Below are positions 19,052 to 61,597 of a stretch of 64,000 nt of DNA, in pieces; within the stretch, counting starts at the first letter, position 1; each line of letters begins with the position of its first letter. A program made the translations under genes and the position numbers. This DNA comes from Heteronotia binoei (taxonomy: Eukaryota). The notes under the pieces were generated by a model. It saw only the letters and a list, made by a program, of their open reading frames with translations, did no database searches and had not been told where the DNA came from. The DNA lies in NCBI RefSeq assembly GCF_032191835.1, contig NC_083226.1, positions 21,948,001-22,012,000 of the forward strand. The letters are read 5' to 3'.

Positions 19052-19440
19052 GTGGCAGCCAGTTTGTACAGGTCCTTTCTCTCACAGCAGCCATTTTGTG
19101 ACAGGATCCCCTACTCTTGCTCAAAACCTCCAAAGTGCCCATAGGGTCAACATGTCTGAGGAATCACTGAGGTACATTTTGTACACTTACCATAGAGTTG
19201 TTAAGAAACTATATATCACTGACATTAACTATACAGGGTTTTAAAGCAGGTTCTTCATACACATCATTTAAATCCAGGGATTTTTTTAAAAAGCAGGAAA
19301 GCAATTTCAGCAGGGTGGTGTCAGAGGGTGTGGCCTAACATGCACATGAGTTCCTGCTGAGCTTTTTCTACAAAAAAAGCACTGTTTAAATCAATATGGT
19401 AACACGTCACTTTCTCTTGCACAGAAACTGGAAAGCTAGC

Positions 19441-20370
19441 ATGCAGAATCAAACTTCTGTGGCTGAATTCTTCCTACTGGGTTTCTCCAAGAGCCTGAAG
19501 ATCCGCCTCATACTCTCTGGGTTGTTTTCTGTGATCTACACCATCACACTGGCAGGCAACACAATCATCCTGACGTTTATTTGGCTGGATTCTCGACTTC
19601 ACACTCCCATGTATTTCTTCCTGAGTCAACTCTCCTGTGTGGACATCTGCTACACTTCCAGCACTGTCCCTCAAATGCTGGCTAACCTCCAGCACCCAAG
19701 ACAAACTATCTCATTGATTGGTTGCGCTGTTCAGATGCATGTTTTTCTCACCTTGGCTATCACTGAGTGCATTCTGCTTGCCGTCATGGCATATGACAGG
19801 TATGTGGCGATATGCCACCCTTTGCACTACACGTTCCTCATGAACAAAAGAGTGTGTTTCACACTCGCTCTAACATCCTGGGTTAGTGGTCTTTTGTTGC
19901 CAGTAGTACACACTTCTCTCACATGGCGCTTGCCATTCTGCGGTCCCAATCAAATTGACCACTTCTTCTGTGAAATGCCAGCGGTCTTGAAGCTGGCCTG
20001 CACTGACACTAAAATTATTGAAAATGTCACTTCCTTGGGGTGCATTTTCACCTTGGTCACTCCCACCTCTTTCATCATGATGACTTACGTCCGCATCCTG
20101 AGAGCCATCTTCAAAATGAAATCAGCCCACAGCCGGGGCAAAGTGTTCTCCACATGTGGCTCCCATATTACTATGGTGGTGCTCTTCTATGGCAGTGCCA
20201 TGTTTATGTACATGAGACCCACGTCCAGCCGCTCAGCAGAAAAGGACAAAATAGTCTCTCTCTTCTACAGCGTCATCATCCCCATGCTCAATCCCTTGAT
20301 ATACAGTCTGAGGAACAAGGATGTGAAAGGGGCCTTGATAAAAATGCTGCAGCGTTGCAGAGTTTCTTGA
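19441..20370 (+). CDS. Olfactory receptor, class II, family 2 (OR2A-like), intact, 309 aa
   Basis: Motifs WLDSRLHTPMYFFLS, MAYDRYVAICHPLHY, FSTCGSH and PMLNPLIYSLRN. ATG at 19441 (MQNQTS) lies downstream of the acceptor TTTCTCTTGCACAG. Confidence 0.96.
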   Translation: MQNQTSVAEFFLLGFSKSLKIRLILSGLFSVIYTITLAGNTIILTFIWLDSRLHTPMYFFLSQLSCVDICYTSSTVPQMLANLQHPRQTISLIGCAVQMHVFLTLAITECILLAVMAYDRYVAICHPLHYTFLMNKRVCFTLALTSWVSGLLLPVVHTSLTWRLPFCGPNQIDHFFCEMPAVLKLACTDTKIIENVTSLGCIFTLVTPTSFIMMTYVRILRAIFKMKSAHSRGKVFSTCGSHITMVVLFYGSAMFMYMRPTSSRSAEKDKIVSLFYSVIIPMLNPLIYSLRNKDVKGALIKMLQRCRVS

Positions 20371-31710: not shown

Positions 31711-32652
31711 ATGTGGAACCAGACTTCAGCAAAAGAATTCCTCTTCCTTGGTCTCTCTAGGAACTTCAAGATCCGTCTCATTCTTTTTGGGTTATTCTTT
31801 ATGGTCTATATGATCACACTGGCAGGTAATGTGATTATACTGGTGCTTATCTGGCTGGATTCTCGCCTCCACACTCCCATGTATTTCTTCTTGAGCCATC
31901 TTTCCTGCGTGGACATCTGCTATACCTCCAGCACTGTCCCCCAGATGTTGGCCAACCTTCAGAGTCCTAACAAACCCATCTCGCTGATTGGTTGTGCAGT
32001 GCAGATGTATACATTCCTAGCCTTGGCCACCACGGAATGCATACTCCTTGCAGTGATGGCGTATGATAGATACGCCGCCGTATGTCACCCCCTGCATTAT
32101 ACCTTCCTTATGAACAAAAAGGTGTGCATCAAACTGACCGTGGCAACATGGACCAGTGGCCTTTTATTGCCAGTGGCACATGCAGTCCTCACGTGGCGGT
32201 TGCCTTTTTGTGGCTCCAATTTGATCGACCACTTTTTCTGCGAAATGCCCGCACTGCTGAAGCTGGCATGTGCTGACACCAACACGGTGGAAAAGCTCAC
32301 TTCGTTTGGATGCATTGTCACCTTGGTCACACCCATCTCCTTTATCATGATCAGTTACACCCGCATACTGGCAGCCATCTTAAAAATCAAATCTACACAA
32401 AGTCAGTGCAAAGCTTTCTCGACGTGTGCCTCTCATGCATCCGTGGTGGTGCTTTTCTATGGCAGCGCCATATTTATGTACATGAGACCTGAGTCTAGTC
32501 ACAGTCCAGGTCAGGACAAAATGATCTCTCTCTTCTATAGCATTGTAATTCCCTTGTTCAATCCCATAATATACAGTCTGAAGAACAAAGATGTCAAAGG
32601 GGCATTGATTAAGGTACTGCATAAATGCAGGTCTTGTTGCTCACCCAGTTAG
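31711..32652 (+). CDS. Olfactory receptor, class II, family 2 (OR2A-like), intact, 313 aa
   Basis: Motifs WLDSRLHTPMYFFLSHLS, MAYDRYAAVCHPLHY, KAFSTCASH and PLFNPIIYSLKN. Close paralog of the OR at 19441. Upstream acceptor TCTTTCTTTTCTACAG. Confidence 0.96.
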   Translation: MWNQTSAKEFLFLGLSRNFKIRLILFGLFFMVYMITLAGNVIILVLIWLDSRLHTPMYFFLSHLSCVDICYTSSTVPQMLANLQSPNKPISLIGCAVQMYTFLALATTECILLAVMAYDRYAAVCHPLHYTFLMNKKVCIKLTVATWTSGLLLPVAHAVLTWRLPFCGSNLIDHFFCEMPALLKLACADTNTVEKLTSFGCIVTLVTPISFIMISYTRILAAILKIKSTQSQCKAFSTCASHASVVVLFYGSAIFMYMRPESSHSPGQDKMISLFYSIVIPLFNPIIYSLKNKDVKGALIKVLHKCRSCCSPS

Positions 32653-39240: not shown

Positions 39241-40185
39241 ATGATGGTGGTGGACAGAAACCTGTTTTCCCCGCTGGGCATATTTTTTCTAATTGTATTT
39301 GGAATCAAGTCCATTGTTTCCCTGTTAGGGAATGGATTCATCCTAGCCGTGAATGGCCAGAGCTGGCTCCGCAGCAAGAAGATGCTCCCTTGTGAGTTCC
39401 TCTTAACCATTCTGAGCCTCTCCCGTTTTCTCTTGCAGTGGGTTATTGTGAGCAGCCAATTTGTGTATTTCAGCTCTCCAGAGACATACACATATGGCAT
39501 AAATCAGCAGGCATTCTCTCTTAGCTGGATGTATTTGAACATAGCCAGTCTCTGGTGTGCCACATGGCTCAATGTCTTCTACTGTGTGAAGGTCATCAAC
39601 TTTGCCCACCAGTTCTTTGTATGGCTGAAGCCTAGAATTGGGGTATTGGTATCCAGATTCCTTGGAATATCACTACTAGCTTTCATCATCTGCTCCGTTC
39701 CTCCAATCATGACCTATTACGAAGAGAAAAACTGCCGCAATCACATCGGAACTCTAGCAGAGGACATCAGCCGAAGCGAGACTTGTGGCAGCCGTTTACT
39801 TACAAAGTTAAGTCCTCTCCAGTTCTCTTTTACTGCCATCAATTTTAGCATCTGCTTAATGGCATCCCTTGTTTTGCTTCTCTCTTTGTGGAGGCACACG
39901 AGGAATCTAAAGAAGGGTGGCCTCAGCCCCAAGGACCTCAGCACTAAGGCCCACCTCAGAGTCATGAAGCCTTTGCTTCTCTTGCTCTTCTTCTACATTG
40001 TACATTTTCCTGCCATGATCATTGTTATGGGCGATATTCTCCAGTATGGTAAGCTTGAGCGGCTGATTTCTGACATTGTCCTGGCTTCGTATCCTTCTGC
40101 TCACTCCGTCATCTTGATAGTCACCAATCCCAAGCTGAAAAAAGCATACATCCATATTCTAAACCTGAAAAGAAGTGCTTCCTAA
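39241..40185 (+). CDS. Bitter taste receptor TAS2R (TAS2R39/40-like), intact, 314 aa
   Basis: LGNGFI, LSLSRF, NIASLWCATWLNVFYCVK, FVWLKPRI, SLWRH, AHLRVMK and YPSAHSVILIVTNPKL. The ORF-track start at 39199 is TTG; the first ATG is 39241. Confidence 0.95.
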   Translation: MMVVDRNLFSPLGIFFLIVFGIKSIVSLLGNGFILAVNGQSWLRSKKMLPCEFLLTILSLSRFLLQWVIVSSQFVYFSSPETYTYGINQQAFSLSWMYLNIASLWCATWLNVFYCVKVINFAHQFFVWLKPRIGVLVSRFLGISLLAFIICSVPPIMTYYEEKNCRNHIGTLAEDISRSETCGSRLLTKLSPLQFSFTAINFSICLMASLVLLLSLWRHTRNLKKGGLSPKDLSTKAHLRVMKPLLLLLFFYIVHFPAMIIVMGDILQYGKLERLISDIVLASYPSAHSVILIVTNPKLKKAYIHILNLKRSAS

Positions 40186-40754
40186 ACAGGAGGAAAAGGT
40201 GGTGATTCTGTGTGTCTTTTTTATCTTGTCCATTTCTATTCTTTTTGTCATTCTGCCGCAAAATGCTTATAGTGCTGAAACTACGGAGCAAGCTGTCACG
40301 AGCACTGCTTTCAGTATGAACAAGTAAAGTGAAATATGCAGTGCAAGAACGGAAAGTAGTTAATGCCTACAAAACACATGATGCAGTATAACGGAACAAA
40401 ATACACATGTGCATGTTAACTATGGAGGGATAGAAAAGTGGAGAAAATTGGCACATGCACAGAAAAACAATTCCCAGATATACTGTACAGACAACTCAGT
40501 TATTCCATGCTTGCTGTCTCTTCACATTAAGCACATATCTTTAAAAAACAGGGAGAAGGGATGCGCAGATAACACAATGGATTCCTCAATCAAGATAACA
40601 GGAATGCAGTAAAACAAATTGTTTACTCCTTCACCAAAACTATGGCTCATACTTATGCAAAAAAATGTAACATTACAACCAGTCCTGAGTAAACAGCTTT
40701 CGGTAAAAACCAAATGAGATAGCTGAGACTTGAGGCAGAAAGAAAGGCTTGGTC

Positions 40755-40843
40755 ATGCAAATGGAGTCATGCCCCTCCCCATATACATGCAATGGAATGC
40801 ACAGCCTGTCATAGGTTGGAAAAATAACTTCGAGGATTTGCAT
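40755..40843. promoter_or_regulatory. Two octamer motifs upstream of the second TAS2R
   Basis: ATGCAAAT at 40755-40762 and GATTTGCATCTC (octamer 40836-40843), about 105 nt upstream of ATG 40948. Confidence 0.55.
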
Positions 40844-40947
40844 CTCTCTGTGTAACATGACCTATTTGAATACCCAGCAGATGCTCAACCAGACAGAAGC
40901 AAGCAAACTCAAAAAGAGAGACAGAACTTGGTCTGTCTTGGACAATA

Positions 40948-41901
40948 ATGAGTCACGAAATTTCATTGTCCCTTAGGACTCTTTATCTGTCCGTGTTTAG
41001 CACGATGTCCATTGTAGCCTTACTAGGGAATGGATTTATCATCGTTGTGAATGGCTACAGTTGGCTCCAGAGTCGGAAACTGATCCCTTGTGGCCTTCTC
41101 CTGACCTGTCTGAGCCTCTCCAGGTTTCTAATGCAGGGGCTTCTCATGACGAACCGATATCTCTATCTCAGCTCTCCAGGGACTTATGAGTTTAGCTGTA
41201 CGGAGCAGATCATAAACATGGCCTGGAACTACTGCAACATGGCCAGCTTCTCGAGCGACACCACTCTCAACGTCTTCTACTGCCTGAAGATCACCACCTT
41301 TGCTCACCCCCCGTTCCCCTGGTTGAAGTCGAGAATTGACAAGCTCGTGCCACAACTGCTTGCGATACCCTGCATTGCTTACGTGCTTCTCTCTCTCCCT
41401 TCGTACATAGCTTATGTGAAGGCAGGACAATGCAACGTTCTGACAGCAAACGGGACAGAGTGGAGAAACCCAAAAACCAATGAAGTGTTTAAGTTCTTGG
41501 CTCCTGCTCAGTTCACTCTCCCTGCCCTCTGTTTCGCCGTATGCTTAGCCGCGTCCATTCTTTTGTTCGTCTCTCTGTGGAGGCATACGAGGAACCTGAA
41601 AAGGAATGGCCTGGACATGAAGGATCTCAGTACTCAGGCCCATCTGAATGTCATGAGGTCTCTGTTGTGCTTCCTTGTCTTCTTTGTTGTCTATTTCGTT
41701 GTATTGAATGTTACGTTTGCACATGATTTTCGGTTCGACAGCAGTGGAGAACTGATCACCATCATTCTGATTTCTTCCTATCCTTCTGCTCATTCAATCA
41801 TCTTAATAGTGACCAATCCCAAACTGAAAGAAATGTGTGTCCGAATTCTGAACATTGTTAAAAGGTTCTCATGTTCTTCAAGCAGCGGCAGTGCCGAATA
41901 A
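40948..41901 (+). CDS. Bitter taste receptor TAS2R, divergent paralog, intact, 317 aa
   Basis: LGNGFI, LSLSRF, LNVFYCLK, FPWLKSRI, SLWRH and YPSAHSIILIVTNPKL. Confidence 0.95.
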   Translation: MSHEISLSLRTLYLSVFSTMSIVALLGNGFIIVVNGYSWLQSRKLIPCGLLLTCLSLSRFLMQGLLMTNRYLYLSSPGTYEFSCTEQIINMAWNYCNMASFSSDTTLNVFYCLKITTFAHPPFPWLKSRIDKLVPQLLAIPCIAYVLLSLPSYIAYVKAGQCNVLTANGTEWRNPKTNEVFKFLAPAQFTLPALCFAVCLAASILLFVSLWRHTRNLKRNGLDMKDLSTQAHLNVMRSLLCFLVFFVVYFVVLNVTFAHDFRFDSSGELITIILISSYPSAHSIILIVTNPKLKEMCVRILNIVKRFSCSSSSGSAE

Positions 41902-50795: not shown

Positions 50796-51706
50796 ATGAT
50801 GGACAGAGAGCTGCTTTCCTCACTGAGAGCCTTTTTTCTGATCATCTTTGTAATCGAGTCCATTGTTTCCCTGTTAGGGAATGGATTCATCCTAGCCGTG
50901 AACGGCCACAGCTGGCTCCGCAGCAAGAAGATGATCCCTTGTGAGTTCCTCTTGACCGCACTGGGCCTCTCCAGGTTCCTTATGCAGTGGATTTCCATGA
51001 GCCATCAATTTGTGTATTCCAGCTCTCCATATCTATTTGATAAAACAGAGCAGGCATTTGGCTTTTCCTGGACTTATATCAACACAGCCAGCCTCTGGTG
51101 TGCGACATGGCTCAGTGTCTTCTACTGTGTGAAGGTCACAAACTTTACTTCCCCTCTCTTTTTATGGCTGAAGCTAAGAATTGGGGTGCTGGTGCCCAGA
51201 CTCCTTGGAATATCTCTCCTAGCTTTCATAATCTGCTCTGTTCATCCAGTTATTAGGCATTTTGAAGTTGATAAATTACCAGAGAACACCAGCCACAGTG
51301 AGGTTTATAGCACCAATCGTTTAATGTTTTTAAATACTCTTCACATTTTTTTTACTGCCATCAATTTTTGCATCTGCTTAACAGCATCCCTTGTTTTACT
51401 TCTCTCTCTGTGGAGGCACATGAGGAATCTGAAGAAGAGCGGCCTCAGCACCAAGGACTTCAGCACTCAGGCCCACCTCAGAGTCATGAAGCCTTTGTTC
51501 CTCTCCCTCTTCTTCTACATTTTGCATTTTGTTGTCACAATTATTGTTCTAATTAATGTTTTCAACTATGGCAAGCTTGAGCACCTGATTTGTGAGATAC
51601 TCCTGACTTCGTATCCTTCAGTACACTCAATCACCTGATATTTACCAACCCCAAGCTGAGGAAAGTGTGTAGCCATGTTCTAAACTTCAGAAAAAGTACC
51701 TCATGA
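50796..51706 (+). pseudogene. TAS2R with a 1-nt deletion in TM7 (pseudogene, polymorphism or assembly error)
   Basis: ORF 50796-51638 stops at YPSVHSIT*. Adding one base near 51634 restores LIFTNPKLRKVCSHVLNFRKSTS* (TGA 51704-51706). Octamer at 50664, TATTAA at 50699. Confidence 0.85.
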
Positions 51707-57340: not shown

Positions 57341-58963
57341 ACAAGAAAACTCTTTAAAACCTCCTTTGCACAGAAAGTTAAAATACCTATGTATGCACTT
57401 TACAACATGATCATGTTAGAAGACTTTTTCAAGAACAAAAGCTGGGGATAACAGTTCCCATAAGACCAGCATAGGGAAAGGTTAGGGAACTATTTTTTGG
57501 CACCAGTGAGAGAAAAAAACACATTTACCATATAAATCACTGACCCCCATTTGTATCATTATGCAAGGTTAGTAAATACAGCTCCTATAAGAGCTATGAA
57601 ACTACGGGGGAACCCTTTAATTCTGTCCCAGTGGGTCCCTTGGCTCTTTGCCTTTTTTAAGGTCTCTGGGCAACCTCTGGGAGAAGAGCTTGCAACATCA
57701 AAATCTCCCAATGCGGACTATGCAGTTTAGAAGATTAAAAGAAAGTCTGGCATCATCCCAAGCCTAGGAGGAATACAAAGAAGAGGAAGAAAGATAGGAA
57801 AATCTATAGAAAAGAATAATCAGAAAATTAAAGGGAAAGAAATTGTATGTAAGACAAGTTAAGTGGTTGAAGTTCATGTAATGTAGTATATTTTGTCAGC
57901 AAAAGAGGCAGTTCTTGGATAGACCTCTGAGAGTGCAAGTTGGTCTGTGATTTTTTTCCATGATTGTTTTGATCATGTTTTTTTCAAACCAGAGGGAGAT
58001 TGACGGTGAGGTGTTAGATTTCCAAAATGATGCGATGGCAGTTTTCGCCACTGTCATGCCTAAGGTTGTGCCTAAGTTTTGGGATTGTAGAGTTGTTCCT
58101 TAACACGAATTCTTATCAGTTGCTCCTTGGAAGTTTCCATAGCTGATAATTTGGGAGCAGGAGAAACTAAAGTTTTGGTCTCATTAATAATGCTGGCATC
58201 AGCAAACTGTAACGCCTTCTCATTGAGTAGATAAGGGAAGTGCTGGCTGGAGCAAACAGTAGGTGAACGTATATCCAAGAAGTCATCCATCCCACTCTGC
58301 TTTCTCTGGGGTGCCAAAAGTTCGTTGGGGGGGGGGTGTTTTCCTCCCCATCTGTGCTCGTTACTTTAGAGTTCTATCAGTAGAGACCAAAAATTGTGGA
58401 GCTAGTTGTAAAATTGGTTTGACTAGCTAAATCTGCTGAGCTCCGTAACAGTCTTGTATAAAAGAAAGAAAAAAAAGAAACAAGAAATAATAATTTTTCA
58501 AAAGTTTTAAAAATTATGAGGCAAAAAAATATTAAAGCCTCGGTCTCTAGTTCTGCTCTGAAAACTGTTATATCAAGGCCAGCCAATTAAAAACATTCAC
58601 AGGCTTATCAGCGTGTCAGCACTAGAAAATAAAAGTCTTTAAATGAAAAACAGCTGCCTGCCAATGCAGTTTTCTGAAAGAAAAGCAGGCTTTCTATGCA
58701 GCTAGCCAAAAATAGCCACAAGAATAAATATAAAATGTGAATTAGATATAAAATACCACAAGTCAGCGAACAGCCTGATAAGAATGCTGCCTAGGCTTCC
58801 CAACCCTCCCGCTCTGGCGGGGGACGCCAGGATTTCCACCCTCTTCCCCCGCTCCCCCCAAAAACGGAAGCGGGGGGAGGGGGGAAACGGTGCCACGAAC
58901 ATGGCGAGCCGCCCCATCCCGGAGCGGGCGACGACGCCCCCTCCCCTCACAGCTGCTCCTCCG

Positions 58964-59811
58964 TGGCGCTGTTGGGCCAAAGGCTGCCGAGAGCGGGCAA
59001 GCCAGGCAAGGGGGCTCTGCTCTCAGCCAGCGGCCGTCTCCCAAAGGAGAAGCAACGGGGGCGGAGTGTTGAGGGGGGCTTGGTGCCCTCACCGGCCCGG
59101 CCCCCCTGCTCGCACGTGCAGCCGCCGCTCCCTCTGGCTGGCTGGGCGGCTCGGGGCGGGCGCGGCGTTGCCAGTGGCTGAGAGAGGTGCTGACGGGCCG
59201 GCCGACAGGCGTGGCGAGGCGAGGCGGGGCAGCTGTAGCGGGCCGCGGGAAGGGAAGAGAAGGCCGGTGAGCAGCAGGTCGGGATGGCAGCGGCGGCGCT
59301 CGGGAGGGGCAGCTGGAGCTGCGTCAGGCGGGCGAGGCCAGCACTGGCGGCGCCCTGAGCCAGCATGTCCCGCAAGAAGTCCCCGCGTGGCAAGGGCGCC
59401 TCTTTGCCCTCGTCCGCGCTGCCCACCGCCCAGCAGCAGCGCGGCGCCAAGGCGAGGGGCGCAGCCGGCGGGCGCGGAGGGGCAGAAGCCGGGGCGGCCA
59501 ATGGGGTGGTGGCACCGCTGCCCGGCCGGCCCTCCCTGAGCAGCAGCGGCGAGTTCTACGACGTCGCCTTCAAGGTGATGCTGGTTGGTGATTCTGGCGT
59601 CGGCTCTCAGCCAGCAGGGCGTAGCCGGAGGCCAGCACGTTCTTCTTGCCCTGCGCGCACATCCGCCCCACCACCCTCCCGACCACCTCGCGGGGGCTGG
59701 AAACCTGCAAGGGACGGAAGCGGGACACGTGCTCGGCGGCGGCGTGGGCAGCCCCACGAGGCACTGGGCCAGCTGGCCGCGGTAGGCCGGCGCGTCTCTC
59801 TCCTGCAGCAG
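58964..59811 (-). pseudogene. TERT: TERT N-terminal (TEN) fragment, split by the RAB26 insert
   Basis: The minus strand reads LLQERDAPAYRGQLAQCLVGLP (59811-59746) and VSSPREVVGRVVGRMCAQGKKNVLASGYALLAES (59704-59603). It continues in frame as RAPLPGLPALGSLWPNSATE from 59018. Compare remembered vertebrate TERT: [53 protein letters not shown] and SYLPNTVTD. Confidence 0.8.
59365..59604 (+). pseudogene. RAB26: RAB26 5' fragment (80 codons, ends within the P-loop), probably spliced
   Basis: MSRKKSPRGKGAS...PGRPSLSSSGEFYDVAFKVMLVGDSGVG matches remembered RAB26 MSRKKTPKSKGAS...PGRPSL...FYDVAFKVMLVGDSGVG. Homology stops before KT. Confidence 0.9.
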
Positions 59812-60529
59812 CCCCCGATTCCAACCCAGAGGGGGAGCGGAGCGCGCTGCGCCGCTGCCCCCCCCCCCCCCGCAGCTGCTCCTCCGAGAGGGGCCCAATT
59901 TGAGCCCATCTCAGAGGAGCAGCCACGTTCCCCGGTGCCGTTTCCCCCCCCTCCCCCTAGCTCCACCCCAGTGTCTCCTGGCTCCACCCCCAAAGTCTCC
60001 TGGCTCCACCCCCAAAGTCCCCAGATATTTTTAAATGGGACTTGGCAACCCTAATGCTGCCGCCCAAAAACTGCAAGTCAGTCCAGTCAGAGTTGTTCCA
60101 GTATTGAAGAAAGAGTATTTCTGGAGAGAACGGCACAACCTGTAATCTTATTCACGCCTTCAGGTATTGTTCTCCAGAAAATTTCCAATGAAGGGAAATG
60201 CCACCAGCGACATGCAAAAGAAACAGTGGCACCACACCCTTTCTAGCAATCAGATGAATAAGAGTGGGACATTAATTGCAGTTTTTTAGGGCTAAGCTAC
60301 CCCCTGGTTAAAACTGTAAAGTCTGGTAGTTTCATGTGTCTTGATGATGAGGCATCTAGAGTGGGGTTCCAAATCTTTGACCACTGCTCTTCAGTGAAGT
60401 CTTTATTACAGTCTCTATTCCAAGAGCACTGATAAGATATAAGTCTAGAGGAAAGCAATAGTTCTAATTCTAAAGTTATGTACAATATGATACCTGGCTG
60501 CATCGTTCGTAACAGAATACTTCCTCTTG

Positions 60530-60655: not shown

Positions 60656-61597
60656 ATGGCAGGGATGGGCAGAAGTCTGTTTTCCCCACTGGGAGTCTTT
60701 ATTCTGATCGTTTTTGGAGTCGAGTGCATTCTTTCCCTGTTAGGGAATGGGTTCATCCTAGCTGTGAATGGCCACAGCTGGTTCCGCAGCAAGAAGATGC
60801 TCCCTTGTGATTTCCTACTGACCACTCTGAGCCTCTCCAGGTTTCTCTTCCAGTGTGTTTCCATGAGCAGCCAATTTGTGTATTTGAGCTCTCCAGAGAC
60901 ATTTCTATATAGTAAAGCAGAGCAGGCATTTGCGTTCTCCTGGGGTTATTTAAACATAGCCAGCCACTGGTGTGCCACGTTGCTCAATGTCTTCTACTGC
61001 ATGAAGGTCACCAACTTTGCTCATCCTTTCTTTGCATGGCTGAAGCTGAGAATTGGGGTGTTGGTGCCCAGATTCCTTGGAATATCTCTCCTAGCTTTCC
61101 TAATCTGCTCTATTCATCCAGTCATTAGGCATTTTGAAGATGAAACATGCAACAATCTCACAGGAAACCTACCAGAGAACACCAGCCACAGTGAGACTCA
61201 TGGCATCAACTGTTTTATGTTTTTAGATATGCTTCAGATTTATTTTACCGCCACCACTTTCAGCATCTGCTTAATGGCATCCGTTGTTTTGCTTCTCTCT
61301 CTGTTGAGGCACATGAGAAATCTGAAGAAGGGCGGCCTCAGCACTAAGGACTTCAGCACTCAGGCCCACCTCAGAGTCATGAACCCTTTGCTTCTCTCCC
61401 TCTTCTTCTACATTTTGCATTTTGCTGCCTTGATCATTGTCCTCACTGACGTTTTCACGTATGGCAAGCTTGAGAAGCTAATTTGTGACATATTCCTGTA
61501 TTCGTATCCTTCAGCACACTCCATCATCTTGATATTCACCAATCCCAAACTGAGGAGAGTGTGTACCCATGTTCTAAACCCCAGAAGTTCCTCATGA
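60656..61597 (+). CDS. Bitter taste receptor TAS2R (TAS2R39/40-like), intact, 313 aa
   Basis: LGNGFI, LSLSRF, LNVFYCMK, WLKLRI and YPSAHSIILIFTNPKL. The ORF-track start at 60644 is TTG; the first ATG is 60656. Confidence 0.95.
   Translation: MAGMGRSLFSPLGVFILIVFGVECILSLLGNGFILAVNGHSWFRSKKMLPCDFLLTTLSLSRFLFQCVSMSSQFVYLSSPETFLYSKAEQAFAFSWGYLNIASHWCATLLNVFYCMKVTNFAHPFFAWLKLRIGVLVPRFLGISLLAFLICSIHPVIRHFEDETCNNLTGNLPENTSHSETHGINCFMFLDMLQIYFTATTFSICLMASVVLLLSLLRHMRNLKKGGLSTKDFSTQAHLRVMNPLLLSLFFYILHFAALIIVLTDVFTYGKLEKLICDIFLYSYPSAHSIILIFTNPKLRRVCTHVLNPRSSS

Follow-up and report, generated by a model that had tools for sequence, protein, structure and literature searches.

A non-autonomous hAT-type DNA transposon in the genome of Heteronotia binoei carries a fragment of the host telomerase gene TERT and, inside that fragment, the 5′ part of host RAB26 in spliced form. 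We consider it probable that the RAB26 part is a tailless retrocopy of spliced mRNA, made a single time by internally primed LINE-type TPRT in a copy of the element that already had TERT, and that the element then spread the insert to at least 34 places. That the insert comes from RNA is, in our judgement, almost certain. The later spread of the RAB26-bearing element was likely by ordinary cut-and-paste transposition. Positions refer to the window, the whole 64,000-nucleotide stretch that was analysed.

The element and the RNA origin of its RAB26 insert

The entire pack element (58792–60053; 1,262 bp, no strand assigned) is framed by 8-bp TSDs with the same letters (58784–58791 and 60054–60061, both on the plus strand) and ends in an imperfect 12-bp pair of TIRs (left, 58792–58803, plus strand; right, 60042–60053) that match at 10/12 nt. 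Both ends read TAGG-C/G, so that the YARNG terminal motif is present; short TIRs with this motif are a hAT feature in the relevant passages of PMC3014272. The element is non-autonomous and, by its 8-bp TSD and its short YARNG TIRs, of hAT type. No autonomous partner with matching TIRs was found at the 22 hAT transposase loci examined as 6-kb stretches. There are at least 150 hAT dimerisation-domain matches genome-wide, many of them in frames of ∼940 amino acids; many of these transposase frames are open (region set L091–L100), which suggests a young autonomous family. The label ‘Blackjack-type hAT’, considered for the element, was dropped, no paper on it being found in the literature searched.

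The kilobase around the insert, at 73% GC, is the sole GC-rich kilobase of the 64-kb window. The window itself is a chemoreceptor cluster, with four TAS2R frames at 39241–41901, 50796–51638 and 60656–61597 (Pfam) and olfactory-receptor-like frames at 723–1727, 19396–20370 and 31711–32652, one of which was confirmed by Pfam and the others named by appearance only. The element lies upstream of the last TAS2R frame, with 603 bp between the element end and the ATG.

The left arm (58792–58963, plus strand) and the right arm (59813–60053, plus strand) are common to a cargo-free parent family. Between them lies the minus-strand TERT exon-1 fragment in two parts: a downstream part (58958–59031; 84% identity to host TERT, named by PDB search), the first 6 nt of which are common to the element arm, and an upstream part (59603–59812; 79% identity to host TERT). 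The RAB26 insert separates them and reads on the plus strand. It consists of a 333-nt leader (59032–59364) corresponding to the DNA directly 5′ of the host ATG (a putative 5′ UTR), with a GC box at 59058–59067, followed by the exon-1 coding part (59365–59574) and the first 30 nt of exon 2 (59575–59604) in an intronless join to exon 1. The last 2 nt of this exon-2 piece are common to a 13-bp duplication (copies at 59019–59031 and 59603–59615, both on the plus strand), which an exact search found just where the first-pass annotation had placed it; with up to one mismatch allowed, the 13-mer has 2 matches in the window against 0.18 expected. The same annotation held that removing the insert rejoins the TERT frame. 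It does so, the flanks reading VLASGYA/LAESRAPLPG...WPNSATE, and 28 natural one-copy sites agree; the window copy nevertheless has a separate frameshift (spacer of 38 nt versus 45 in the host).

The sole non-element match of the RAB26 piece is on the minus strand of G000:C20. This is host RAB26, in which exon 2 has 36/37 residues identical to human Rab-26 (PDB entry 2g6b; PDB sequence search). Here the leader and exon 1 are contiguous, and a 5,464-bp GT..AG intron interrupts the gene exactly at the K/V junction, where the first-pass annotation had expected one. In the element exon 1 runs directly into the 30 nt of exon 2, and the intron is missing in 10/10 full copies, which bears out the proposal that the contiguous exons came from mRNA or cDNA. 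The exact spliced junction occurs at 10 genomic places, all within elements, and the one-mismatch matches are unrelated DNA in 13/13 cases. In the genome search the exon-2 probe matched the RAB26 gene only (1 match), as did the first 402 bp of intron 1 (1 match), and neither the exon-2 probe nor the spliced-junction search found a free RAB26 retrocopy in the assembly. Shared differences between the insert copies and live RAB26 amount to 18/562 columns, 1 of them coding. The leader, put at about 330 nt before, matches DNA directly upstream of the host ATG and not a third locus. The coding piece does comprise 80 codons, but these correspond to host codons 1–84, the window copy lacking 12 nt of a CAG-rich run. 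The insert stops in the P-loop, before its lysine, directly on the duplication and with no poly(A). It thus shows the features of a tailless retropseudogene: it is intronless and 3′-truncated, has no oligo(A) and has a TSD of 13 bp, within the 8–35 nt range.

The probe for the 3′ end of the intron returned matches dominated by a SINE (best 40 of 1,404 candidates). Near its 3′ end, intron 1 of RAB26 (L040:1050–1700) contains a tRNA-like SINE segment in a tandem array of about four units, and similar arrays occur elsewhere; no clear TSDs were seen for this SINE in 20 loci.

Copy census and order of capture

We counted 62 TERT-bearing element copies. Of these, 28 have TERT only and 34 carry RAB26 (10 in full, 24 with internal deletions). 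The TERT-only copies are the RAB26-free elements that the first-pass annotation thought worth looking for, and all 28 have the 13-mer once. The junction pattern search gave 64 matches, of which 2 were unrelated (C3, no element) and 2 were second matches inside duplicated copies; it missed 2 known copies, and the census is near complete, yet a lower bound. L027 and L028 have common flanks and were counted as one insertion. The element TSDs of the TERT-bearing copies are perfect in 44/62 cases and match at 7/8 positions in 15/62, with damaged ends in the remaining 3/62. An 8-bp TSD of their own, with no more than one mismatch, in 59/62 copies shows that these moved in the manner of hAT-type DNA transposons. 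Cargo-free copies behave similarly (16/20 perfect, 4/20 with 7/8 matches). These parental elements are 583–637 bp long (∼610 bp), have the same arms and number at least 40 full-length copies (best 40 of 4,762 candidates). One of them (L072:198–800) is made up of two GC-rich modules with a near-perfect 24-bp hairpin in each. Part of the cargo is internally duplicated in tandem in two copies, L030 and L037 (1,458 and 1,024 bp).

TERT was captured first, and RAB26 was inserted once, shortly before its burst. The RAB26-bearing copies have common derived markers, from which it follows that the insertion occurred once. A diagnostic column has T in 29/29 RAB26 rows; of the 26 TERT-only rows, 24 have C and 2 a gap. 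At 3/4 diagnostic columns the letter of the cargo-free family is the TERT-only one. The 5′ junction is identical in all RAB26 copies and the 3′ junction in 10/10 full copies. In a first tree (55 rows) all 29 RAB26-bearing rows form one clade with a bootstrap of 75%, rising to 99% without L074 (28 rows). A second tree (66 rows, shorter arms, rooted on 11 cargo-free copies) did not recover the clade and placed the RAB26 label with 3 changes, only 1 of which is forced by well supported branches; this tree neither supports nor rejects a single origin. Both trees were built without L023, L030, L037 and L069 (truncated or duplicated) and L011, L027 and L028 (deleted arm), and the second also without L131 and 8/20 cargo-free copies. 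We rejected the idea that the empty copies are revertants produced by recombination between the 13-mers: 0/26 empty rows fall inside the RAB26 clade and they carry the ancestral states. Per copy, the RAB26 piece differs from the host gene by 6.6% and the TERT piece by 18%; the divergence among copies is 6.1% in the TERT-only group and 5.2% in the full RAB26 group. The similarity of the 6.6% to the 5.2% among full copies places the RAB26 capture shortly before the burst.

The TERT piece spans ∼285 bp of exon 1 and matches the single host TERT (G000:C14), the best protein matches of which are reptile TERTs. Its capture left a 6-nt overlap at one junction, with none evident at the other, and no duplication, and an internal stretch of the parent was lost. 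Host non-TE sequence thus lies between TIR arms with a parental locus elsewhere (C14), junction microhomology and distinct TSDs, as in Pack-TIR elements. Because host TERT has no intron in the captured stretch, the piece is uninformative on whether the template was RNA or DNA; for the same reason we discarded the notion that the piece keeps an intron. A duplication belonging to the TERT capture was likewise discarded, the repeated 14-mer in question belonging to the two modules of the parent element. TERT was apparently captured before RAB26 by DNA gap-filling. The nested build-up claimed at the outset therefore stands as three tiers of elements, but the tiers were made by two different mechanisms: a replacement without a duplication for TERT and an insertion with one for RAB26.

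Over 78 codons the commonest codons of the TERT-only copies (compared with L051:4985–5275) contain no stop and differ from the host at 19 residues. Where the captured and host sequences can be set against two other reptile TERTs, these agree with the captured piece at 7 sites and with the host at 2, and at each of the 34 bases that differ the host has G or C. Judging from sequence comparison, the captured TERT seems to record an earlier form of the host gene, and the pattern points either to GC-biased fast evolution of the host subtelomeric gene since the capture or to a related lineage as the donor. If the former is right, the element would preserve an earlier version of host telomerase. In host TERT (L051:4700–5365) one frame runs from the ATG across what we take to be the position of the human first intron; the intron appears to be absent.

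Junctions and competing explanations

At the 3′ end of the insert the target and the RAB26 mRNA overlap by exactly 2 nt (GC) or, if one mismatch is allowed, by 4/5 nt, and the duplication then measures 16 bp, likewise with one mismatch; of the 2–3 nt (GGC) reported earlier, GC holds exactly. At the 5′ end, directly at the join, the host gene has the last 6 letters but one of the 13-mer. The first-pass annotation missed this 6-nt match; one of such length occurs at 5/1,010 host positions. A reverse-transcribed cap can leave an extra G at a 5′ junction. We did not adopt this reading for the extra G here, which conflicts with the 6-nt upstream match and is indistinguishable from a later substitution. 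Both junctions would fit TPRT with nicks 13–16 nt apart, going by the general TPRT model as outlined in PMC5322556.

The size of the duplication and the composition of the target send different messages about the enzyme. We surveyed ACCTTT-tailed (Sauria-type) SINEs, which passages of PMC13295347 link to BovB: 22/30 loci had usable TSDs, 7–14 bp long with a mode of 13 (7/22) and with 17/22 at 11–14 bp. The RTE/BovB insertion signature given in the same source is Tn-TA, and the SINE TSDs start with T in 17/22 cases and with TA in 13/22, with a mean GC content of 31% and a maximum of 62%. The target of the insert is 69% GC, starts with G and has no T-run upstream; it lacks the Tn-TA signature of RTE/BovB and equally the A-rich TT/WAAAAWW site of L1. 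With a GC-rich target and no A-rich site, the insert works like a tailless retrocopy and is not filed as an L1-type member. The likeliest enzyme would be an RTE/BovB-type one or a relaxed L1 ORF2. Such a mixed signature, a LINE-like stagger in a non-LINE target, is a test case for the enzymes that make retrocopies in reptiles.

Put together, the preferred course of events starts from the ∼610-bp cargo-free family that still exists in the genome. In one copy ∼285 bp of TERT exon 1 took the place of an internal segment, probably by template switching at the 6-nt microhomology that the junction displays, and this copy then multiplied to 28. In one TERT copy, staggered nicks 13–16 nt apart would have exposed a 3′ end that paired over 2–5 nt with RAB26 mRNA at a point 30 nt inside exon 2. 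From there cDNA synthesis would have run back to ∼380 nt upstream of the ATG, with joining at the 6-nt match and fill-in yielding the duplication. The RAB26-bearing copy then multiplied with fresh 8-bp TSDs and yielded internal-deletion derivatives. We count the 2 exact nucleotides, which make for short priming, against the LINE-type step.

LINE-mediated retroposition and RNA-templated repair had been offered side by side in the first-pass annotation, and we retain both. The second would dispense with a LINE endonuclease: spliced RAB26 mRNA or cDNA would have annealed by microhomology to both ends of a staggered break in the element, and the gap would have been filled. The microhomology at both junctions (6 nt and 2–5 nt), the lack of poly(A) and the GC-rich target without an L1 or RTE signature all suit such a repair, and the element is break-prone, with 8 distinct large internal deletions among 24 derivatives. 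Spliced tail-less pieces of mRNA joined by microhomology were captured at Cas9 breaks in mouse zygotes in cases described in PMC4516963, but these insertions are, by that account, mostly without target duplication, the exceptions being of 4 bp and 10 bp, whereas 13 bp is the local RTE-type stagger. Within the element family itself none of the deletions called for filler DNA, and the capture of TERT produced no duplication. We therefore regard break repair as a real but rather unlikely alternative to LINE-type TPRT.

Two further schemes would place the capture at the level of DNA. A 6.1-kb stretch of the RAB26 gene could have been taken up and the intron lost within the element, either by microhomology-mediated deletion or through a spliced element transcript and gene conversion. 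Passages of PMC3014272 describe uptake of large genomic fragments by hobo-type hATs of lizards, internal deletions are common in the element family, the leader may include promoter DNA and the intron ends share 6 nt (AGGTGA). This splice pair, however, is just 1 of 118 repeat pairs of ≥6 nt, and 1 of 1,948 pairs of ≥4 nt, whose deletion would remove ≥5 kb, and most deletions use 0–4 nt; no intron-bearing intermediate is seen, the 402 bp at the 5′ end of intron 1 being single-copy, and the 13-bp duplication is left unexplained. We hold this course of events to be extremely improbable. Scarcely better is the chance that the element captured, as DNA, a processed RAB26 pseudogene that once lay elsewhere and has since been lost. 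This would account for the missing tail and the missing LINE signature, and capture of pre-existing retrogenes has been described for bat Helitrons in the relevant section of PMC4224331. No RAB26 retrocopy is present in the assembly, though, and the shared differences are few (18/562, 1 coding); moreover, a duplication together with empty sites is what the same section of PMC4224331 takes as the mark of insertion into an element.

Fate of the cargo and comparison with known systems

In the host, the DNA that corresponds to the 333-nt leader is 381 nt long and directly precedes the ATG. The leader lies within a CpG island that starts several hundred bases further upstream, and it has one perfect GC box and three upstream ATGs; given these last two features it could be promoter DNA instead of 5′ UTR. 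All 24 deletion derivatives (L011–L030, L073–L075 and L078) have kept the leader start and the GC box and have lost the splice junction. The 8 distinct large internal deletions among them have many of their right breakpoints in one 40-bp stretch of TERT; most deletions in the family have overlaps of 0–4 nt and none needed filler DNA. Retention of the leader has a rough p of ∼0.02 for five events, but these are non-independent and leaderless copies are harder to find, so that the value is a lead only. In the window copy the RAB26 ATG opens a 229-amino-acid frame that runs through antisense TERT. Pfam gave no match for the three cargo fragments or for this chimeric frame, and the names used here come from PDB sequence searches. 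In the RAB26 coding piece 29/90 distinct substitutions are synonymous against 35% expected (p = 0.66), and 5/10 full copies have frame-changing indels; with substitutions that look neutral and indels of this kind, a protein function for the RAB26 piece was rejected. There is no evidence of function in the cargo, which is most likely a neutral passenger. RTE/BovB-type reverse transcriptases are generally held to be restricted to RNAs that share their own 3′ end. A bolder proposal, which we think improbable, is that such an enzyme copied a cellular mRNA by internal priming at a GC-rich site, and that the hAT element then favoured the CpG-island leader and dispersed a promoter-like cassette over 30 or more loci, including one that lies 603 bp 5′ of a bitter-taste receptor gene.

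The ingredients of this history are known separately. The literature searched, which takes in few subscription journals, had no report of a cut-and-paste transposon that multiplied a spliced piece of mRNA without a tail; this is weak evidence that the combination of such a piece with a hAT element is new. Every intermediate of the RNA-to-DNA relay is present in one genome: the empty element, the element with TERT, that with spliced RAB26 in addition and the deletion derivatives.

As a transposon, the element resembles hobo_AC and its non-autonomous families in Anolis, for which the passages concerned in Novick et al. (2011; PMC3014272) give an 8-bp TSD, TAGGCTT termini, uptake of extraneous DNA and many deletion derivatives. 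The TSD length, the TAGGCTT start, the uptake and the derivatives are alike, but the TIRs differ after position 7 and the Anolis cargo is genomic DNA with old TE fragments; the terms ‘host gene’ and ‘exon’ are absent from its text. In the animal Pack-TIRs of Tan et al. (2021; PMC8277862), host sequence lies in TIR transposons with microhomology at the junctions, and a frog hAT is one of the multicopy cases that have distinct TSDs, as far as the parts of the paper bearing on them go. The TERT step fits this class, whereas the RAB26 step differs in being RNA-derived and in having a duplication.

The RAB26 step is closest in form to the tailless retropseudogenes of Noll et al. (2015; PMC5322556), in the relevant passages of which the copies are 3′-truncated with an (almost) complete 5′ end, have no oligo(A) and TSDs of 8–35 nt, occur also in the green anole and are ascribed to L1 machinery at TT/WAAAAWW targets. 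Shared with our insert are the 3′ truncation, the lack of oligo(A), a TSD in the 8–35 nt range, a short overlap between target and RNA 3′ end and the inclusion of mRNAs among the sources. Theirs, by the same passages, have A-rich targets and priming sites and are ordinary genomic insertions; ours is GC-rich in both respects and was multiplied as the cargo of a DNA transposon. The products of repair described in the corresponding parts of Ono et al. (2015; PMC4516963) likewise are spliced mRNA fragments without poly(A) and with microhomology at the junctions, but usually have no TSD and were obtained at experimental Cas9 breaks.

For an RNA copy nested in a DNA transposon the precedent is the bat Helitrons of Thomas et al. 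(2014; PMC4224331), with four cases and 118 copies in vespertilionid bats in the section concerned. There, as here, a retroposed intronless mRNA sits in a DNA transposon that has a host gene fragment, is flanked by TSDs, has empty sites and was amplified. The bat elements, as portrayed in that section, are rolling-circle transposons and their retrogenes are 5′-truncated with a poly(A) tail, in contrast to a hAT-type element with a tail-less insert that is 3′-truncated in exon 2, keeps the 5′ part and entered a GC-rich target. With bat Helitrons as the earlier example, counts of this class in cut-and-paste elements may be too low: intronless copies of multi-exon genes were purposely discarded in the main survey of animal Pack-TIRs, by its own account in the passage concerned, and an ARF6 retrogene in MER20 was noted there as ambiguous (PMC8277862).
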